Source of the DNA: a phage
NCBI GenBank assembly: GCA_024875585.1
Contig: GCA_024875585.1_4107.1
Direction: 5' to 3' (one strand)
Length of the DNA stretch: 64,000 nucleotides
The translations under genes and the position numbers were made by a program. Each line of letters opens with the position of its first letter. Within the stretch, counting starts at the first letter, position 1. Of this stretch, positions 10,437 to 64,000 are shown piece by piece. The notes beneath the pieces are model-generated. The model worked only from the letters and a program-made list of their open reading frames with translations, was not told where the DNA came from and searched no databases.

Positions 10437-10460
10437 AGACCCGTTATGGGTCTTTTTGTG
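10437..10460 (+). terminator. rho-independent terminator
   Basis: hairpin agaccc-gttat-gggtct followed by TTTTT. Confidence 0.7.
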
Positions 10461-10468
10461 TTTATGGC

Positions 10469-10497
10469 TTTACAAGAGCATTCAGGTGTGTTATACT
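10469..10497 (+). promoter_or_regulatory. sigma70-type promoter TTTACA-N17-TATACT with upstream TG
   Basis: TTTACA 10469-10474, TATACT 10492-10497, between a terminator and the next ORF. Confidence 0.5.
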
Positions 10498-10524
10498 TGA
10501 TTTCAAATAGAGTTGGAGGAATAT

Positions 10525-19647: not shown

Positions 19648-19654
19648 TAAAATA

Positions 19655-19685
19655 TTGTGAACATATTAAATCTTTATGATATAAT
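19655..19685 (+). promoter_or_regulatory. promoter with extended -10 TGATATAAT flanked by an inverted repeat
   Basis: TTGTGA 19655-19660, TGATATAAT 19677-19685; inverted repeat tgtgaacat / atgttcaca brackets the -10. Confidence 0.5.
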
Positions 19686-19717
19686 GTTCACATCTTTTTT
19701 TGATAATGGAGATATAG

Positions 19718-21366: not shown

Positions 21367-21383
21367 GACAAAATAGAAGTTAA

Positions 21384-21392
21384 TGATATAAT
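21384..21392 (+). promoter_or_regulatory. TGATATAAT extended -10 element
   Basis: same 9-mer as other intergenic promoters; directly abuts a terminator-like hairpin. Confidence 0.3.
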
Positions 21393-21396
21393 GTGA

Positions 21397-21426
21397 GGTG
21401 ACAGTATATACTGTCACCTTTTTTTA
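21397..21426 (+). terminator. strong rho-independent terminator
   Basis: perfect palindrome ggtgacagtatatactgtcacc followed by TTTTTTT. Confidence 0.8.
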
Positions 21427-28894: not shown

Positions 28895-29473
28895 ATGAAT
28901 GTATTAGAATTAAGTACGAAGCTGATTAGTATGCGTAACGAGTGGTACGATTGGTTTTATAATGGTACTGATATGGATTTTTCAAAATATCCATTTATGG
29001 AATCAGGATGTGATTCAAGATACCGCTGGTTGAGCAAAAGTGGTTCTGGTTTATTCATTCGTGTTGATGATAGTGGTCGAGGAATTATAAAAGATTTCAT
29101 TCAAGTTGAAGAACTCGTCTATGATAATTGGGGTGATAACGATCCATACCTTGGAAATATGATTTATGTAAGTGAAAATGATTGCATATTCGTTATCCAG
29201 CGTCATGGTGATTCTATGTTTTATGTAGCGGACAACAATACACCTGACGGTGCAGCAGCCGATGGACTTATGCCTAAGATTGATATATTGGAATTTGGAT
29301 TACCTGAGCATTTTCAGATTAGTACTTTATACGATATCCCACCACTTGAGTTCTTTGAAGAATTTAAATTATACTACAATGAACTTCAAAAATTGAGTTC
29401 TGAACATCGAATTGAAATAACAGTCAAGTACATAGATGGGACAAAATTAACCGATACGGGGATAGAATTTTGA
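28895..29473 (+). CDS. family-A-like protein (PEHFQISTLYD)
   Basis: 192-aa ORF. Confidence 0.6.
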   Translation: MNVLELSTKLISMRNEWYDWFYNGTDMDFSKYPFMESGCDSRYRWLSKSGSGLFIRVDDSGRGIIKDFIQVEELVYDNWGDNDPYLGNMIYVSENDCIFVIQRHGDSMFYVADNNTPDGAAADGLMPKIDILEFGLPEHFQISTLYDIPPLEFFEEFKLYYNELQKLSSEHRIEITVKYIDGTKLTDTGIEF

Positions 29474-30159
29474 TTAAAGATTTAGATAGAATTTTATATG
29501 TACTAAGGGGTGTAATTACATTACATCCACACATCAATCGAATTGAAAGTACATTTCAGTTGGAGTCAAGAGAAACTCAATATTCACATATATCAAATGT
29601 AGTTGGCTCACTTAGTACTGAAGACTCGCCTTACGATATTTGTGTATGTGAAGTACAACCAAGTTCGGATCTTGGATTTGCTATTTTTGATAAAAATCAA
29701 AATCTCATTAGTATGTTTCAGTGCAATAATCCTTTTTGGAAAACATGCCTGTATCCAGAGTGGGCTATGCTTGATCCAACCAAGAGCACCATTAAAGTTT
29801 ATGACTCTAAAAATGATGAAGTCGTTATTGATTTGGATGAGTCAATGTCCGAGGAAGAACACTTTCAGCTAATGATGATGCGTGCTATGCCTGAATACAA
29901 TGCAATGATTAACACTGTGCAATACATTAAGGATACCATGCCATCATTGCGTACACATGAGTTTTGTCATCCGGTATTGTATGAACATTTAGATTTAGAT
30001 TTCAGTACTATTAAATTTAAAGATAGTGTCATTGAGTATATCCAAGAGGTTACTAAATTCGATTTCATTAGTACAATGAATAATAACCCTGAAACAAATT
30101 TCAGACGACAATACAATGAATCTTTGTCTAATGGACGTGATACAAGTTGGTGGAAATAA
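29470..30159 (+). CDS. family-A-like protein (EEEHFQLMMMR)
   Basis: 229-aa ORF. Confidence 0.6.
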   Translation: MIKDLDRILYVLRGVITLHPHINRIESTFQLESRETQYSHISNVVGSLSTEDSPYDICVCEVQPSSDLGFAIFDKNQNLISMFQCNNPFWKTCLYPEWAMLDPTKSTIKVYDSKNDEVVIDLDESMSEEEHFQLMMMRAMPEYNAMINTVQYIKDTMPSLRTHEFCHPVLYEHLDLDFSTIKFKDSVIEYIQEVTKFDFISTMNNNPETNFRRQYNESLSNGRDTSWWK

Positions 30160-44501: not shown

Positions 44502-44504
44502 TAT

Positions 44505-44543
44505 AAAAAATAGGAATCCCACACAAGGATTCCTATTTTTATT
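44505..44543. terminator. rho-independent terminator (A-run / hairpin / T-run)
   Basis: hairpin taggaatcc-cacacaa-ggattccta flanked by AAAAAA and TTTTT. Confidence 0.8.
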
Positions 44544-44592
44544 ATTGCACGTCAAATTGGATTCATTGATGTTTATAATCTAGAGGGACATA

Positions 44593-46073: not shown

Positions 46074-48746
46074 TTACGCACTGATTGTTACAGTTGCAGT
46101 ATCTTTTTTATTACCATCCACAGTAGTCACTGTAATGATTACAGAACCTTCTTCTAGAGCAGTTACTAATCCATCATCACTAATAGATACTTTAGTAGGT
46201 TCATCTGCACTATAAGTTACTGATTTGTTAGTTGCTTTAGCTGGAAGAACTTCAGGAACTAGTTGAACTGTTTTAGTTCCTGATAGTGAAAGTTCAGTAG
46301 TTTTAGGTGTTAAACTAACACTGGATACTGGAACTGGAATATTAACGATTACTGATGTTTGACCAGTAACATCACTACCATCAGCGGCAGTAGCGATAAT
46401 ATTTGCAGTACCATTAGTTAGTGCAGTTACGATACCAGTATTAGCATCTACTTTAGCAATTTCTGGAGCACTGGATGACCAAATTACTTTTTTATTGGTT
46501 GCATTACTTGGGGTAATTGCAGCAGTCATCTGTTTAGTTGCATTCAATGTAGTCAAAGTTTGATCTTTAGGAGTTACATCAATTGCAGTTACTGGCACTG
46601 GAATATTAACAGTAATAACACCTTGACCTGTTTTACCACTTCCATCAGCAGCAGTTGCGATAATGTTTGCAGAACCGTTAGTTAACGCAGTTACAACACC
46701 AGTACTAGCATCTACTTTCGCTACAGCAGGTTTACTGGAAGACCATGTTACAGATTTATTTGTTGCGTTAGTTGGAAGAACTTCAGCAGCCATTGCTTGA
46801 GTTGCGTTAACAGCAGTCAATGTTTTAGTTGCTGGAGTAACATTAATAGATGCGACTGGAACTGGAATTGCTACAGTTACCGCACATTTTGCAGTTTTTG
46901 CTCCATCAGCAGTTGTTACTGTGATATCAGCAGTGCCATTTGCTACAGCAGTGATTAAACCAGTTGGACTAACAGTTGCCACTCCATCAGCAGAAGTACT
47001 ATAAGTTACTGCTTTGTTGGTAGCATTAGGTGGTAGTACAGTTGGTGTTAGTTGTTGAGTATCACCGACTGAAGTTAATTTAGCACTTGTTGGAGATACT
47101 GATACACTTGCAACAGGAACTGGAATATTAACATTTACCACGCAAACTTTAGTAAATCCACCATCAGATGTGGTTGCTGTAATATTTGCAGTACCGTTTG
47201 CAACAGCAGTGATTAAACCAGTTGGACTTACCGTTGCGACACCCTCAGCAGAAGTAGTGTATGAAATATCTTTACGACGAGCGTTATCTGGAATAACAGA
47301 TGCAGTTAGTTGTTGAGTAGCACCTACAGAAGTTAGGGTTGCTGTCAACGGAGTCATATTAATACCAGTTACTGGGATCGTTACATCAATCACTGATTCA
47401 GCAGTTTTAGCACCATCATCAGTGGTAACAGTAATAGTTGTAGTACCGTTATCAACCGAAGTTACTAGACCAGTATTGCTAACTTTTGCCACGTCTGGAT
47501 ATGAAGAAACATATGAAACTGCTTTATTGGATGCAGTTGTAGGAGCAACGGTTGTTTCTAATTGTTTAGTATCACCTAATGTTGAGAATGTATAAGTACT
47601 AGGAGTCATAGTGACACCAGATACAGGTGTTTTCACAGTGATAGTAGTAGTATCAGTTTTAGCACCATCTTCGGTTGTTGCTGTAATCACCACTGTACCG
47701 TTAGCAACACCAGTTACTAGACCAGAAGTAGGGTTAACAGTTGCTATATCAGGTGTTGCTGAAGACCACGTGACGTTTTTATTAGTTGCATCATCAGGAG
47801 ATATTGTAGCAGTTAATTGTTGAGTACCGCCAACGTTAATTGTTGCAGTTTTAGGAGAAACAACAACACCACTAACTGGAGTTGTTACAGTAACAGTACA
47901 TTTTGAAACAAATATGCCATCAACAGTAGTTGCAATTACATCAGTACTACCATCTGCAACACCAGTTACCATACCAGATGGACTTACAGTTGCGACGCGT
48001 GGTATACTAGATAACCAATTAACACGTTTATCACTTGCATCATCGGGTGATACGGTAGCTGTTAGTTGTTGAGTTTTACCAACACTAAGAGATAGAGTTG
48101 AAGGAGAAACAACAACACCACTAACTGGAGTTGTTACGGTAAATGCACAAACATCAGTGAAACCACCATCATGAGTAGTAACTGTTACATTTGCGTTACC
48201 ATTAGCACGGGCAATTGCTAAACCAGTTTGAGCATCAACTTCAACAATTGTTGGAGCAGAGGAACTATAACTTACTGTTTTATCATTTGCATAATCTGGA
48301 TCAATTGTAGCTGATAGCTGTTGTGTACTACCAACTTTAAGTGCTACTACTTTAGGTGAAATAATTACACCATCAACTGGAGTAGTATAATCACGTTTAA
48401 CCACACGACCATTGTTCAATTTAATAATACGACCCATATAAAGAGTAGTATATCCTTTACTAATCCCATCATCTACATAAATCATGAATGAATTGTCTTG
48501 AACCATATTAATTGCGTCTACTGGTTTAACGGAATTTGGAATGTCGATACCACGGGTATCATACCAACACATGGAAACTTTGTAATAGATATCACCATTA
48601 TCATTTATGAGATCATAAACGTTACTGGAACGTTGACGGTTAATATATAAAGTTTCGGTTAACACCTTACCATCGATTTTAGCGACAGAAACTTTAATAC
48701 CACCAATACCAAATGGCAATTTACCTTCACTAGATATTGCTTTCAT
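46074..48746 (-). CDS. Ig-like (Big_2) repeat virion surface protein, Hoc-like or adhesin-like
   Basis: 890 aa; unique N-terminal ~120 aa followed by about nine ~85-aa repeats (VSGVVVSP...TQQLTAT..PDDA..K.V.WSS...ATV...GLVTGVANGT); only long minus-strand gene; AAGGA RBS. Confidence 0.7.
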   Translation of the reverse strand: MKAISSEGKLPFGIGGIKVSVAKIDGKVLTETLYINRQRSSNVYDLINDNGDIYYKVSMCWYDTRGIDIPNSVKPVDAINMVQDNSFMIYVDDGISKGYTTLYMGRIIKLNNGRVVKRDYTTPVDGVIISPKVVALKVGSTQQLSATIDPDYANDKTVSYSSSAPTIVEVDAQTGLAIARANGNANVTVTTHDGGFTDVCAFTVTTPVSGVVVSPSTLSLSVGKTQQLTATVSPDDASDKRVNWLSSIPRVATVSPSGMVTGVADGSTDVIATTVDGIFVSKCTVTVTTPVSGVVVSPKTATINVGGTQQLTATISPDDATNKNVTWSSATPDIATVNPTSGLVTGVANGTVVITATTEDGAKTDTTTITVKTPVSGVTMTPSTYTFSTLGDTKQLETTVAPTTASNKAVSYVSSYPDVAKVSNTGLVTSVDNGTTTITVTTDDGAKTAESVIDVTIPVTGINMTPLTATLTSVGATQQLTASVIPDNARRKDISYTTSAEGVATVSPTGLITAVANGTANITATTSDGGFTKVCVVNVNIPVPVASVSVSPTSAKLTSVGDTQQLTPTVLPPNATNKAVTYSTSADGVATVSPTGLITAVANGTADITVTTADGAKTAKCAVTVAIPVPVASINVTPATKTLTAVNATQAMAAEVLPTNATNKSVTWSSSKPAVAKVDASTGVVTALTNGSANIIATAADGSGKTGQGVITVNIPVPVTAIDVTPKDQTLTTLNATKQMTAAITPSNATNKKVIWSSSAPEIAKVDANTGIVTALTNGTANIIATAADGSDVTGQTSVIVNIPVPVSSVSLTPKTTELSLSGTKTVQLVPEVLPAKATNKSVTYSADEPTKVSISDDGLVTALEEGSVIITVTTVDGNKKDTATVTISA
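46150..48400 (-). repeat. tandem ~250-270-bp coding repeats (Ig-like domain units)
   Basis: recurring DNA blocks such as actggaactggaat...gcagtaccatt within the Big_2 gene. Confidence 0.6.
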
Positions 48747-48782: not shown

Positions 48783-48790
48783 TATTTATA
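48783..48790 (-). promoter_or_regulatory. T4-type late promoter TATAAATA
   Basis: exact TATAAATA on the minus strand about 40 nt upstream of the Big_2 start codon. Confidence 0.55.
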
Positions 48791-49058
48791 TTATAACAAA
48801 ATTATTTTAGTATTAAAAAGGAGTTCTAATGTTCCTTTATATTTTAAAGGAACATACTGTGTAAATCTGGTTTGGTCAGGTAAATCTTTCGGAGAGAAGG
48901 AAGTAGTGAATGACATTTTATCATTAAAATCATCTCCTTACCTTTAAAATAGAATTGTAAACTGCCTCCTAATATGATACCATAGTTCAAATGGTAAATC
49001 AATGAACTTAACAAAAAAAACACTTGATACTACAGTCATAATTGTTCAGTTTTTGTGC

Positions 49059-49087
49059 TTGACATAATTAATCAATTATTGTACTAT
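49059..49087 (+). promoter_or_regulatory. sigma70-type promoter TTGACA-N17-TACTAT
   Basis: in the divergent intergenic region upstream of ORF 49123. Confidence 0.5.
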
Positions 49088-49122
49088 TAATAATGTTCCT
49101 TAACTCAAATCCGAGGTAATTA

Positions 49123-60976: not shown

Positions 60977-61195
60977 ATGGAAAAATACGATATAATTTAC
61001 GATTATTATGGTAAGGCTTATATGAAGTGTGGGCGTTATGTTGAACTATCTAATAGAGATTCAATAGATCCTCACACTATTATAACAATTCACAACTCTT
61101 ACTATAAAAAAGTTACAATAGCTAATTTTGCAACATACGTAAATAATCCTTTATTTCCTTACATTATTCAGTACTACTGTCGAGTTATAAAATAA
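60977..61195 (+). CDS. hypothetical small protein
   Basis: 72-aa ORF. Confidence 0.45.
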   Translation: MEKYDIIYDYYGKAYMKCGRYVELSNRDSIDPHTIITIHNSYYKKVTIANFATYVNNPLFPYIIQYYCRVIK

Positions 61196-61206
61196 GGTAA
61201 AAAGAC

Positions 61207-61617
61207 ATGTTAGCCGATGATTTTATGTCTCTAAGTACCAAAATATTTGATATATTAGGAGATGAAATCGATTTTCATCTAAATGATGCAACTATACCGT
61301 TAGAAGATGGTGGTTATTTTTTCGCAATTGGTTATAAGTACAATGTTGATTTTTCAATTCCGATTCCTGATGGAAGTGATTACACATCATCAACATATTT
61401 TGAATTTCAGTTCAGAGGACACAAAGAGCGTTTACTAACATATAGACGTAAAGGTAATTTCAGTAGACCAGAGATTATATTAATGGATATTGAAAAACGC
61501 ATAGAAATTGCAAAGAATAATCCATTCTTCAGTTCTTATGCATTAAACCAACTTATTGAACTATTTGATGGCTATCCAGACAGAATACGAGGGTCGTTAC
61601 GTATAAATGCAGAATGA
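61207..61617 (+). CDS. hypothetical protein
   Basis: 136-aa ORF. Confidence 0.55.
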   Translation: MLADDFMSLSTKIFDILGDEIDFHLNDATIPLEDGGYFFAIGYKYNVDFSIPIPDGSDYTSSTYFEFQFRGHKERLLTYRRKGNFSRPEIILMDIEKRIEIAKNNPFFSSYALNQLIELFDGYPDRIRGSLRINAE

Positions 61618-61792
61618 AATCTTTAAAAAAGAATACGATGGTGAAAGCCTTTATGATATTCAGAGAGATGTTCATGAAGCCTTTGATTCAAAATTTAACC
61701 CATTAGCTGAACAAATCCCACAAGATGAATTTGGTTTTCAGGAAGGCACTTTCACAGTGACTATTACATGGAGTCCAGATGAGACTAGCTAA
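61607..61792 (+). CDS. hypothetical small protein
   Basis: 61-aa ORF. Confidence 0.45.
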   Translation: MQNEIFKKEYDGESLYDIQRDVHEAFDSKFNPLAEQIPQDEFGFQEGTFTVTITWSPDETS

Positions 61793-61894
61793 ACTTGTCA
61801 TAGGGTGTAGTGCAATTGCTGCATATATGATTTTTTCACCTCCAACCAATGTATTACTGCTAATTTGGGCGGTTGTTATATTAGCAGTACTTTA

Positions 61895-61918
61895 AAAGCA
61901 CCTTAGTGGTGCTTTTTA
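61895..61918 (+). terminator. rho-independent terminator
   Basis: hairpin agcacc-ttagt-ggtgct then TTTT. Confidence 0.65.
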
Positions 61919-61952
61919 TATTTGTGCAAATAAAAACCAATGTGACTTTTCC

Positions 61953-61966
61953 TTGATATATATCAA
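61953..61966. promoter_or_regulatory. FNR-type binding site TTGAT-N4-ATCAA
   Basis: perfect TTGATATATATCAA palindrome centred about 41.5 bp upstream of the predicted nrdD transcription start. Confidence 0.6.
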
Positions 61967-61988
61967 GAGAAATAGCCTGTTCTGACGC

Positions 61989-61994
61989 TATAAT
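61989..61994 (+). promoter_or_regulatory. -10 hexamer TATAAT of the nrdD promoter
   Basis: TATAAT with no good -35, as expected for a class II activator-dependent promoter. Confidence 0.5.
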
Positions 61995-62058
61995 ATTGTC
62001 TGGTGATATTAAATATCTTCACCCCCAGATGATTTCAAAATACAAGGAATGTACAATG

Positions 62059-63861
62059 CAGCTAGATAAATTATATAATGACGTAACGAATTTCCTAAAT
62101 CAGAGTAATACAGATCTCACAAATGAAAATGCGAACAAAGATGCGAAGTGCGTCAATACACACAGGGATTTACTTGCAGGTATCCTATCTAAACATTATT
62201 CACAAGATGTTATCCCAAATGAACTAATGCAGTGGCATAATGATGGTTATGGACATATTCATGATTTAGACTACTACATCAGCCCATTAACCAACTGTTG
62301 CTTAGTCAACTACCCAGATATGCTAAAAAATGGATTTACTATTGGCTGTGCTAAAATTGAAGAACCAAAAAGTTTTAGTGTTGCATGTACAGTACTAACA
62401 CAGATTGTACAAGCTGTAGCTAGTTCACAATACGGAGGACAATCGTTGGCTCACATTGATGTCGGGTTGGAACCTTACGTTAAAAAGTCATGGGATAAAC
62501 TATTAGAAAAACAAAAGAAATATAATCTAAGTGATGAGTACATTGAAGAAGAATTACGAAAAGAAGTATACGATGGATGTCAAACATTACTTTATCAAAC
62601 TAATTCAATGATTAGTACTAATGGTCAAGCTGCATTTATTTCTCTTAGTTTAGGTTTGAATACTTCCAAATTTGGTAAATTAATCACCGAACAGTACTTA
62701 AAAGTTCATGAGAATGGTTTAGGTAAAGATAAGATTACTCCAGTGTTTCCTAAAGTGATTTTCTTTTTACAAGATGGTATAAACATGAATACCAATGATT
62801 GTAATTATGACCTTAAACAGTTAGCTATGCGTTGTGCATCAAAGCGAATCTACCCAGACTTTGTTTCAGTTCCATTAAATCACAAAGTGACGGGAAGTAG
62901 TAGTACTGCTGTAACACCGATGGGCTGTCGTTCATTCTTAGGAAAATGGGAAGATTCAAATGGAAATGAACAATATAACGGTCGCTTCAATTTAGGTGTA
63001 GTTTCTATCAATTTACCACTAATTGCTCTTGAAAGTGCTACAGATGGAGAGTTTTTTGATAAGATAGATGAGCATATGAATATTGCATATCGTGCTCAGA
63101 TGAACCGCGTCGAGCGTTTAAAAGGTACAAAAGCGAAACAGAATCCAATTTTGTTTATGGAAGGTGCATTAGCACGTTTAGATGCAGAAGAGACTATTGA
63201 CAAGCTATTTTACAATGGTTATGCTAGTATTAGTATTGGTTATGTTGGACTTGTTGAATGTTCGGAAATCCTCACTGGTTCTATCAGTAAGGAGTTTTGT
63301 ATGTCAGTACTGAATTATATGAAAGTAAAATGCGATGAGTTTAAAAAAGAAAGTAATATTGCTTTTAGTTTATATGGAACTCCAGCAGAGTCACTTTGTT
63401 ATAAATTTGCACGTTGCATTGAAGCAAAGTATCCGTCTGTTCTAAAACGTAATTATATTACAAATTCATTCCATCAACCAGTATGGGTTGAAAGTTCTGC
63501 TTTTGAAAAGTGGGATTATGAGGAAAACTTTGCTTATCTAAGCAATGGTGGTAATATTAGCTATGTCGAAACACCAAACTTAACAAACAACATTCAAGCA
63601 CTTGAAACATTAATCAATTATGCCTATAAAAAAATTCCATATTTTGGAATAAACCAGCCTATAGATCATTGTCATAAATGTAATTTTGAAGGTGAATTCA
63701 GCGTCGATAAAAACGGTTTCCACTGTCCAGTTTGTAATAATAGAGATGAAAAATCTATGTCAGTTATTCGAAGAGTTAGCGGATATCTTAGTGCACCAAA
63801 TAGTCGCCCATTCAATAAAGGAAAGCAAGATGAAGTGATTCAGAGAATTCGCCATTTATAA
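62059..63861 (+). CDS. nrdD: anaerobic ribonucleoside-triphosphate reductase (class III RNR)
   Basis: C-terminal glycyl-radical motif RRVSGYLS and Cys-rich CHKCNFEGEF...CPVCN zinc site; N-terminal NENANKD region; start set at ATG 62059 with AAGGAA RBS (track start 61996 rejected). Confidence 0.9.
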   Translation, partial: QLDKLYNDVTNFLNQSNTDLTNENANKDAKCVNTHRDLLAGILSKHYSQDVIPNELMQWHNDGYGHIHDLDYYISPLTNCCLVNYPDMLKNGFTIGCAKIEEPKSFSVACTVLTQIVQAVASSQYGGQSLAHIDVGLEPYVKKSWDKLLEKQKKYNLSDEYIEEELRKEVYDGCQTLLYQTNSMISTNGQAAFISLSLGLNTSKFGKLITEQYLKVHENGLGKDKITPVFPKVIFFLQDGINMNTNDCNYDLKQLAMRCASKRIYPDFVSVPLNHKVTGSSSTAVTPMGCRSFLGKWEDSNGNEQYNGRFNLGVVSINLPLIALESATDGEFFDKIDEHMNIAYRAQMNRVERLKGTKAKQNPILFMEGALARLDAEETIDKLFYNGYASISIGYVGLVECSEILTGSISKEFCMSVLNYMKVKCDEFKKESNIAFSLYGTPAESLCYKFARCIEAKYPSVLKRNYITNSFHQPVWVESSAFEKWDYEENFAYLSNGGNISYVETPNLTNNIQALETLINYAYKKIPYFGINQPIDHCHKCNFEGEFSVDKNGFHCPVCNNRDEKSMSVIRRVSGYLSAPNSRPFNKGKQDEVIQRIRHL

Positions 63862-64000
63862 TATAGTATAACATGATTACCTCGATTTAACATAAATATT
63901 TAAAATTAAATCGAGTAAACTAATTATGAAATGAAAAATGAACAAAGAATCTAATTTTTTGTTCATTTGTTTATGAAATATCGTTTGATGATAGAATATT

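Follow-up and report, generated by a model that had tools for sequence, protein, structure and literature searches.

A 64,000-nucleotide (nt) stretch of phage DNA (NCBI GenBank assembly GCA_024875585.1, contig GCA_024875585.1_4107.1), here called the window, carries nrdD, the gene for an oxygen-labile class III ribonucleotide reductase, downstream of a 14-base-pair (bp) palindrome that matches the consensus of the host oxygen-sensing regulator FNR exactly. This palindrome (61953-61966) is probably a genuine and functional FNR site, and it is likely, judging from sequence, geometry and conservation, that host FNR controls the phage gene mainly through a class II, anaerobically inducible promoter. 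An earlier note on this DNA had proposed that the phage placed nrdD under host oxygen sensing, a proposal supported by the phylogenetic footprint of 20 related upstream sequences, every one of which retains the box. The region is laid out as follows.

61894-61921, + strand: intrinsic terminator of the upstream gene cluster, stem AAAAGCACC/GGTGCTTTT followed by a T-run (hairpin 61894-61916, -12.2 kcal/mol, z -3.77)
61920-61931, no strand assigned: palindromic upstream element ATTTGTGCAAAT, core TTGnnCAAA, conserved in fixed register in 20 relatives
61953-61966, no strand assigned: FNR box TTGATATATATCAA, a perfect consensus palindrome of 14 bp (10/10 against TTGAT-N4-ATCAA), centre 61959.5
61989-61994, + strand: sigma-70 -10 hexamer TATAAT (6/6) of the candidate promoter P1, 22 nt after the box
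62010-62015, + strand: TAAATA, a T4-type late-promoter core in the context ATTAAATA, putative promoter P2, invariant in 20/20 relatives
62044-62049, + strand: Shine-Dalgarno sequence AAGGAA of nrdD; relatives keep AAGGA or GGAG
62056-63861, + strand: nrdD, class III (anaerobic, glycyl-radical) ribonucleoside-triphosphate reductase of 601 amino acids (aa); Pfam NRDD E=4.5e-166, Gly_radical E=6e-23

Promoter geometry and the identity of the box

The centre of the box lies 29.5 bp upstream of the TATAAT hexamer, which places it at -41.5 if transcription begins at 62001, the predicted start 7 nt after the hexamer. At the -35 position (17-bp spacer, 61966-61971) stands AGAGAA, matching TTGACA at one of six bases, and a generic consensus promoter scan called no promoter at the nrdD site. 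The exact consensus, the hexamer some 29 bp away and the want of a good -35 had all been correctly described in the earlier note, which overlooked the invariant TAAATA 21 bp downstream of TATAAT. In E. coli, 19 of the 23 promoters that are directly activated by FNR and have a known start carry the site at -41.5 +/-4 (PMC3688515).

Chance accounts poorly for this arrangement, with the composite box-N20-24-TATAAT occurring once in the window against 0.01 expected. The exact consensus alone is present twice in the 64 kb (0.33 expected); the second copy, TTGATAAAAATCAA at 29687-29700, lies 217 nt inside an open reading frame (ORF; 29470-30159) with a weak AATAAT 25 nt downstream, and is probably a chance match. 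Boxes with at most one mismatch are not enriched in the window (15 against 11.3 expected), so the genome as a whole does not appear to be seeded with FNR sites. A further 50 kb of the near-identical phage UE-S1 contained no exact box, and all six of its one-mismatch boxes lie deep inside genes; no other FNR-controlled gene was found in the ~114 kb of this phage type, the remaining boxes with at most one mismatch being intragenic throughout.

FNR and CRP sites are told apart by one base of the half-site, TTGA for FNR and GTGA for CRP. Both arms read TTGA/TCAA in 20/20 relatives, and a CRP site is ruled out on this ground. An NrdR box was also considered, as the central GATATATATC resembles the host CTATATATAG, but C and G are swapped and the likeness is confined to the spacer of this phage, being absent from its relatives. 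A divergent minus-strand promoter using the same palindrome was likewise rejected, there being neither a -10 nor a leftward gene.

The reader of the box is likely to come from the host. A tblastn search with E. coli FNR against 50,697 phage records returned no FNR/CRP homologue bar one Listeria phage fragment, and a phage-encoded FNR-like reader was rejected at that sensitivity, leaving host FNR as the likely binder. The closest relatives of the window are E. coli phages, and E. coli K-12 carries fnr (b1334), in keeping with the facultatively anaerobic host that the earlier note had expected. Its premise that host nrdDG operons are FNR-activated is borne out by the literature: such control is documented in E. 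coli and Salmonella (PMC2892513; PMC4009431), and its conservation across E. coli, Yersinia and the Vibrionaceae has been inferred (PMC1805755).

Immediately upstream, the terminator hairpin (61894-61916) implies that nrdD needs a promoter of its own, insulated from read-through. The same terminator is annotated in UE-S1 and G17, and is kept in Asterius-, Alcyoneus- and 7t3-like phages. Canonical sigma-70 promoters stand in other intergenic regions of the window, indicating that host polymerase transcribes this part of the phage DNA. At 10437-10524, 19648-19717, 21367-21400, 44502-44592 and 48948-49122 a sigma-70-type promoter comes after a terminator, often with an extended -10 (TGTTATACT, TGATATAAT, TGTTTATAAT, and TTGACA-N17-TACTAT), as is usual in early regions transcribed by the host enzyme.

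In the mechanism proposed here, dimeric [4Fe-4S]-FNR would bind the box in anoxic cells and, from -41.5, recruit host sigma-70 RNA polymerase to the -35-less promoter with its perfect TATAAT, giving class II activation from about 62001. In air, FNR would be monomeric and the -35-less promoter weak, and the oxygen-labile enzyme would not be made from P1, on which the upstream terminator would keep nrdD dependent. TAAATA would probably provide a second, late-type start at about 62021, with the same FNR dimer then standing at -61.5.

Conservation of the box among jumbo phages

The footprint comprised 20 distinct nrdD upstream sequences drawn from GenBank phages, IMG/VR jumbo contigs and the window itself. 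The GenBank set falls into six lineages (G17, PBECO4, ph0011, JNE01 and A4; RaK2 and Muenster; Salmonella 7t3; Cronobacter GAP32; Erwinia Kaldavass; Yersinia fHe-Yen9-04), and the whole covers Asteriusvirus, Alcyoneusvirus, 7t3-like phages, Mimasvirus (GAP32), Erwinia Kaldavass, Eneladusvirus (Yen9-04) and the IMG/VR jumbo contigs. Host genera given in the records are Escherichia, Klebsiella, Salmonella, Cronobacter, Erwinia and Yersinia, which all belong to the Enterobacterales.

In 20/20 sequences TTGAT-N4-[A/G]TCAA lies at -90 to -105 from the ATG, with no or one mismatch to the consensus. Ungapped, register-aligned comparison of the 20 gave an average of 1.91 bits for the ten half-site columns against ~0.9 in the flanks, while the spacer takes eight forms (ATAT, ATAG, TCAG, TTAG, TTAA, CTAG, CCAG and TTAT). 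Conserved arms around a free spacer, with no compensatory changes between the arms, are the signature of a dimeric DNA-binding protein and not of an RNA stem. Structure in the 5' leader was rejected as a general account on separate grounds as well: GGTGA..TCACC inverted repeats flank TAAATA, but RNAalifold found no consensus structure, single-sequence leaders fold no better than their shuffles except in Kaldavass-type sequences, and Rfam returned nothing beyond sub-threshold chance matches to known RNA families. In the GAP32 subgroup the box reads TTGATCTAGATCAA and holds two GATC (Dam) sites.

Among 80 diverse nrdD loci from IMG/VR, the box was found at -90 to -103 from the ATG in 13 of the 13 Rak2-like ones, against a background of 0.024 boxes (at most one mismatch) per 360 nt of coding DNA. 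No FNR box was seen upstream of nrdD in T2 (T4-like), pangalan (rV5-like), T5 or mio (FelixO1-like), T5 having a strong constitutive sigma-70 promoter instead. Boxes nevertheless recur in phages unrelated to the Rak2-like group. Upstream of Nernie-type nrdD stands the FNR-like TTGACTAAGATCAA followed by TAAAAT at offset 23, and the contig L035 carries TTGATCCTGAACAA with TAAAAT at offset 22. In L080 and L089, unrelated 56%-GC IMG/VR contigs, a terminator is followed by an exact TTGAT-N4-ATCAA at -73 or -79, a leader common to both (TCAGTAAA..CTTAATGA) and nrdD, and FNR/Anr-type control may therefore operate in another phage lineage. Taken together, these boxes suggest repeated independent recruitment.

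A further element, with the core TTGnnCAAA, is held in fixed register upstream of the box. Its centre lies 34 bp from the box centre, at about -75.5 from the first predicted start, and the GAP32 group reads TTGAACAAACGTTAA at this place. It could be a contact for the C-terminal domain of the RNA polymerase alpha subunit (alpha-CTD), a UP-like element or the site of a second factor.

In a separate observation on nrdD leaders, the unrelated Nernie and mio were found to have in common AAAAAGATTTAAAAT[AG]AAAG and then a terminator-like hairpin right before the nrdD ribosome-binding site; of the two, only Nernie also has the FNR-like box.

The TAAATA core and the weighing of alternatives

Counted from the box, TAAATA fills positions 44-49 in each of the 20 sequences, at 2.0 bits per column, and the interval between it and the ATG ranges from 27 to 41 nt (41 nt in the window). 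Since the hexamer keeps its place relative to the FNR box, irrespective of where the ribosome-binding site or start codon lies, a role in transcription initiation is indicated and a translational one is unlikely. Within the window TAAATA is found 14 times on the + strand against 55-75 expected, and its complement TATTTA 18 times against 65-70, a 4-5-fold depletion on both strands; the T4 late motif TATAAATA occurs once where 14.6 copies are expected, and neither TATAAT nor TTGACA is depleted. In the structural region of UE-S1, 13 of 34 + strand copies stand 28-49 nt upstream of the start of a coding sequence, with ~1 expected, and are preceded by A, C or T (TTAAATA variants occur). TAAATA behaves as a genome-wide signal of the T4 late-promoter type, avoided elsewhere and enriched upstream of structural genes.

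The late class of this signal we infer from these motif statistics and from the predictions of one paper on the related phage CBB, whose promoters were grouped into sigma-70-like early, TGAAAC/extended -10, and late [A/C/G]TAAATA resembling T4 TATAAATA; a gp55-like sigma was reported there, and the catalogue has no entry for nrdD (PMC5259590). The T4 late motif spans -13 to -6 (PMC2988020), and if TAAATA at 62010-62015 is taken as -11 to -6, the predicted start is 62021 and the FNR centre falls at -61.5, a canonical class I position. At P2 two of the eight late-motif positions deviate, -13/-12 being AT instead of TA. The TATAAT and TAAATA cores are 21 bp apart, and the predicted starts 20 bp, which would set them on nearly the same face of the helix. 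nrdD may thus have two starts, and need not be silent in air late in infection.

The sole TATAAATA of the window (48783-48790, minus strand) precedes the only long minus-strand gene (46074-48746) by 37 nt and is enclosed by an 8-bp inverted repeat, TTGTTATA..TATAACAA. Inverted repeats were considered as a general feature of TAAATA promoters, having been seen in three cases, but are absent from most of the 34 structural-region copies. An IMG/VR scan for box-N43-TAAATA gave mostly unrelated chance matches among the matches listed.

Several points weigh against a class II promoter as the principal control of nrdD. TATAAT stands at offset 23 (Asterius- and Alcyoneus-type) or 24 (7t3-type) after the box in 13 of the 20 sequences, and the -10 at class II distance is degenerate in the other seven (TATTTT, TATTAT, TTGAAT, TTTTTT). 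These belong to the GAP32/CBB/Yen9-04 subgroup, in which the degenerate -10 overlaps or directly follows a terminator-like hairpin, ACCCC-N7-GGGGT. The class II arrangement is thus not conserved across the clade, whereas the distance from box to TAAATA is; of the class II architecture claimed in the earlier note, the geometry in the window stands, with a fitting predicted start, and its generality is limited to the lineages that keep the hexamer. RaK2-type (offset 23) and 7t3-type (offset 24) promoters also have the extended -10 TGATATAAT, which could allow transcription without an activator. The right half-site is GTCAA and not ATCAA in most Asteriusviruses. Finally, sigma-70 and FNR may not stay usable throughout infection by this phage, the related phage CBB encodes sigma factors of its own (PMC5259590), and literature searches turned up neither mapped starts nor measurements of binding or expression for these phages. 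As a side observation, the hairpin ACCCC-N7-GGGGT of the GAP32 subgroup, including its IMG/VR relatives, is followed by a T-run and lies between box and TAAATA, in place of the Asterius-type upstream terminator.

The strongest competitor accepts FNR binding and makes TAAATA (62010-62015) the principal promoter of the clade, TATAAT in the window being an additional or lineage-specific one. FNR at -61.5 would then contact the alpha-CTD and aid polymerase carrying a gp55-like late sigma, or sigma-70, with a start at about 62021. This account is rather unlikely overall, and owes its standing to the better conservation of the box-to-TAAATA distance than of the box-to-TATAAT distance: the former is exactly 44 nt in 20/20, although the intervening sequence cannot be aligned between subgroups, TATAAT shifts between offsets 23 and 24, and the interval from TAAATA to the ATG is variable. 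The depletion of TAAATA and of TATAAATA, the 13 of 34 structural-region copies ahead of coding sequences, the agreement with the late promoters predicted in CBB, and the -61.5 position given by the T4 motif span all speak for it. Counted on the other side, we know of no activator-dependent late promoter of this type, AT replaces TA at -13/-12, and coincidence would have to explain why 13 of 20 sequences have a perfect TATAAT precisely where a class II promoter should have it. Moreover, T4-type late promoters need no upstream element (PMC2988020), and class I FNR promoters are rare, 1 of 23 in the E. coli set (PMC3688515). The invariant 44-nt spacing is also what suggests the more specific idea that host FNR acts at -61.5 as a class I activator on polymerase bearing a presumed gp55-like late sigma of the phage, a cooperation between a host factor and a phage sigma that we regard as possible but doubtful.

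That some other protein, a phage repressor or activator or another host factor, reads the palindrome, its identity with the FNR consensus being incidental, is highly improbable. It is true that many small proteins of these phages are uncharacterised, that a transcriptional regulator is annotated in CBB, and that the TTGnnCAAA element 34 bp upstream, equally fixed in register, has no known reader. The conserved bases are, however, exactly the ten that FNR reads, the unread spacer varies, and no FNR/CRP-family protein was found in these phages; nrdD is the very gene that host FNR controls in bacteria, the box lies at canonical FNR activation distances from both promoter cores, and similar boxes arose upstream of nrdD in unrelated phages. 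Least credible of all, to the point of being nearly dismissed, is a box with no regulatory role, as a chance AT-rich palindrome or part of a terminator or RNA structure, with nrdD constitutive from TATAAT and/or the late promoter. An AT-rich genome, the second exact box inside an ORF (29687) and the overall lack of enrichment of sites with at most one mismatch would all be expected if this were so, but the box is invariant across at least six genera while its flanks diverge, the composite with TATAAT is found once against 0.01 expected, and there are no compensatory arm changes, no consensus RNA structure and no Rfam match. The box also lies downstream of the terminator in the window, and is thus not part of it. 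Activation by host FNR, mainly from the class II position, remains the reading that we favour.

The nrdD cluster and comparison with known systems

The window derives from an Asteriusvirus jumbo coliphage, with 99.4% identity to Escherichia phage UE-S1 over 61000-64000, ~90% to 121Q, PBECO4, G17 and phAPEC6, and 73% to Klebsiella RaK2-like phages, whose alignment begins right at the terminator/promoter region. Gene calls within the window came from a crude script. The start codon of nrdD is the ATG at 62056-62058 and the stop is at 63859-63861; the listed ORF is headed by a TTG at 61996, the start annotated in UE-S1, and the ATG lies well downstream of it. The product, at 601 aa, belongs to the phage type and shares 44-46% identity with T2/T4-like NrdD. 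In UE-S1 the gene order is terminator, nrdD, a GrcA-like glycyl-radical protein, DUF4326, the NrdG activase and terminator.

Between nrdD and the grcA-like gene (63862-64000) the window holds a hairpin, CTCGATTTAA (63881-63890)/TTAAATCGAG (63906-63915), with cATAAATA in its loop (63892-63898), an AT-rich terminator-like hairpin (63938-63966) followed by TTGTTT, and an extended -10, TGATAGAAT (63989-63997). On account of these hairpins and the extended -10, the grcA-like, DUF4326 and nrdG genes of this phage may have promoters of their own; in RaK2, Muenster and 7t3 the grcA-like gene begins only ~10 nt after nrdD. Most Asteriusvirus genomes align with the window only to ~63770, and the 3' end of nrdD with the downstream grcA-like cassette is common only to UE-S1 and TH47 (ph0011 partly), a restriction that suggests mosaic replacement. 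Inside the 61000-64000 stretch TH47 carries an additional ~1.16 kb. In Phage 203, WPEC5 and CMSTMSU nrdD is annotated in pieces, probably owing to introns or homing endonucleases.

Nothing on an FNR site at a phage nrdD was found in full-text literature searches, nor any transcriptome of the phages considered here, and promoters are not analysed in the main survey of reductase genes in phages. Class III reductases are very common in phages, with nrdD homologues in 2,908 phage records, and how phages choose between aerobic and anaerobic reductases has so far not been addressed. If the FNR site works clade-wide as proposed, enterobacterial jumbo phages would read the oxygen status of the host through its own sensor, as opposed to expressing an oxygen-labile enzyme blindly, which bears on phage replication in the anoxic gut and on phage therapy there. 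Should FNR also act as a class I activator with the late sigma, nrdD would stay under oxygen-dependent control after host sigma-70 has been displaced, and the tandem -41.5/-61.5 layout would let the gene respond to oxygen at every stage of infection. The nrdD site would offer a natural perfect-consensus FNR promoter together with a possible host activator at a phage late promoter, and the same kind of analysis can be applied to other host sensors and to further auxiliary genes of phages.

The nearest parallels are the class II FNR promoters of E. coli (dmsA, narG, nirB, nrfA, ydfZ, and yfiD/grcA at -40.5). As in these, the phage promoter has one FNR dimer site, at -41.5 from the predicted start, lying over a -35 position without consensus, a good sigma-70 -10 and a presumed anaerobic function. 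The parallel extends to the GrcA/YfiD-like glycyl-radical protein encoded downstream in the phage cluster, E. coli yfiD/grcA being itself FNR-activated (PMC3688515). Unlike the E. coli promoters, that of the phage belongs to a virulent jumbo phage and has a late-type TAAATA at a fixed offset of 44 nt, and its box matches the consensus perfectly, as few natural E. coli sites do.

With the nrdDG promoter of E. coli and Salmonella the phage shares gene function (a class III reductase), the proposed regulator and the physiological logic, but the architecture differs. The E. coli MG1655 promoter has two imperfect FNR boxes, TTGAGCTACATCAA and TTGATGCAAAGCAC, 31 bp apart, together with NrdR boxes (PMC2892513). 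In the phage there is only one box, which is perfect, and none of the NrdR type, and no obvious resemblance between the two sequences was seen when they were read side by side without alignment. The host boxes were reportedly placed at -64.5 and -33.5 by Roca et al. 2008. Capture of the promoter from the host along with the gene was rejected, the E. coli nrdDG upstream region being built differently; this difference, and a phage-type NrdD of 601 aa against 712 aa in E. coli, point to independent recruitment of the FNR site.

P2 resembles the late promoters of T4 type, at which gp55 reads TATAAATA at -13 to -6, in its TAAATA core upstream of the ATG, a motif that in this phage is avoided genome-wide and enriched before structural genes. 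It differs from them in having AT in place of TA at -13/-12 and a site for a host activator at an invariant distance, T4 late promoters having no upstream activator site. A precedent in logic comes from lytic cyanophages, some of whose metabolic genes have sites for host regulators in front of them: PhoB pho boxes before pstS and phoA, and NtcA sites. There, as proposed here, a metabolic gene of a virulent phage is placed under a global sensor of the host and expressed only in the matching host state; the present case differs in its signal, which is oxygen, in its regulator FNR and its gene nrdD, and in the phages concerned, the enterobacterial Rak2-like jumbo group. Both kinds of system are already known, auxiliary metabolic genes of lytic phages controlled by a host global regulator as well as class II FNR promoters, and the nrdD promoter would go beyond them if FNR turns out to cooperate with a late sigma of the phage.

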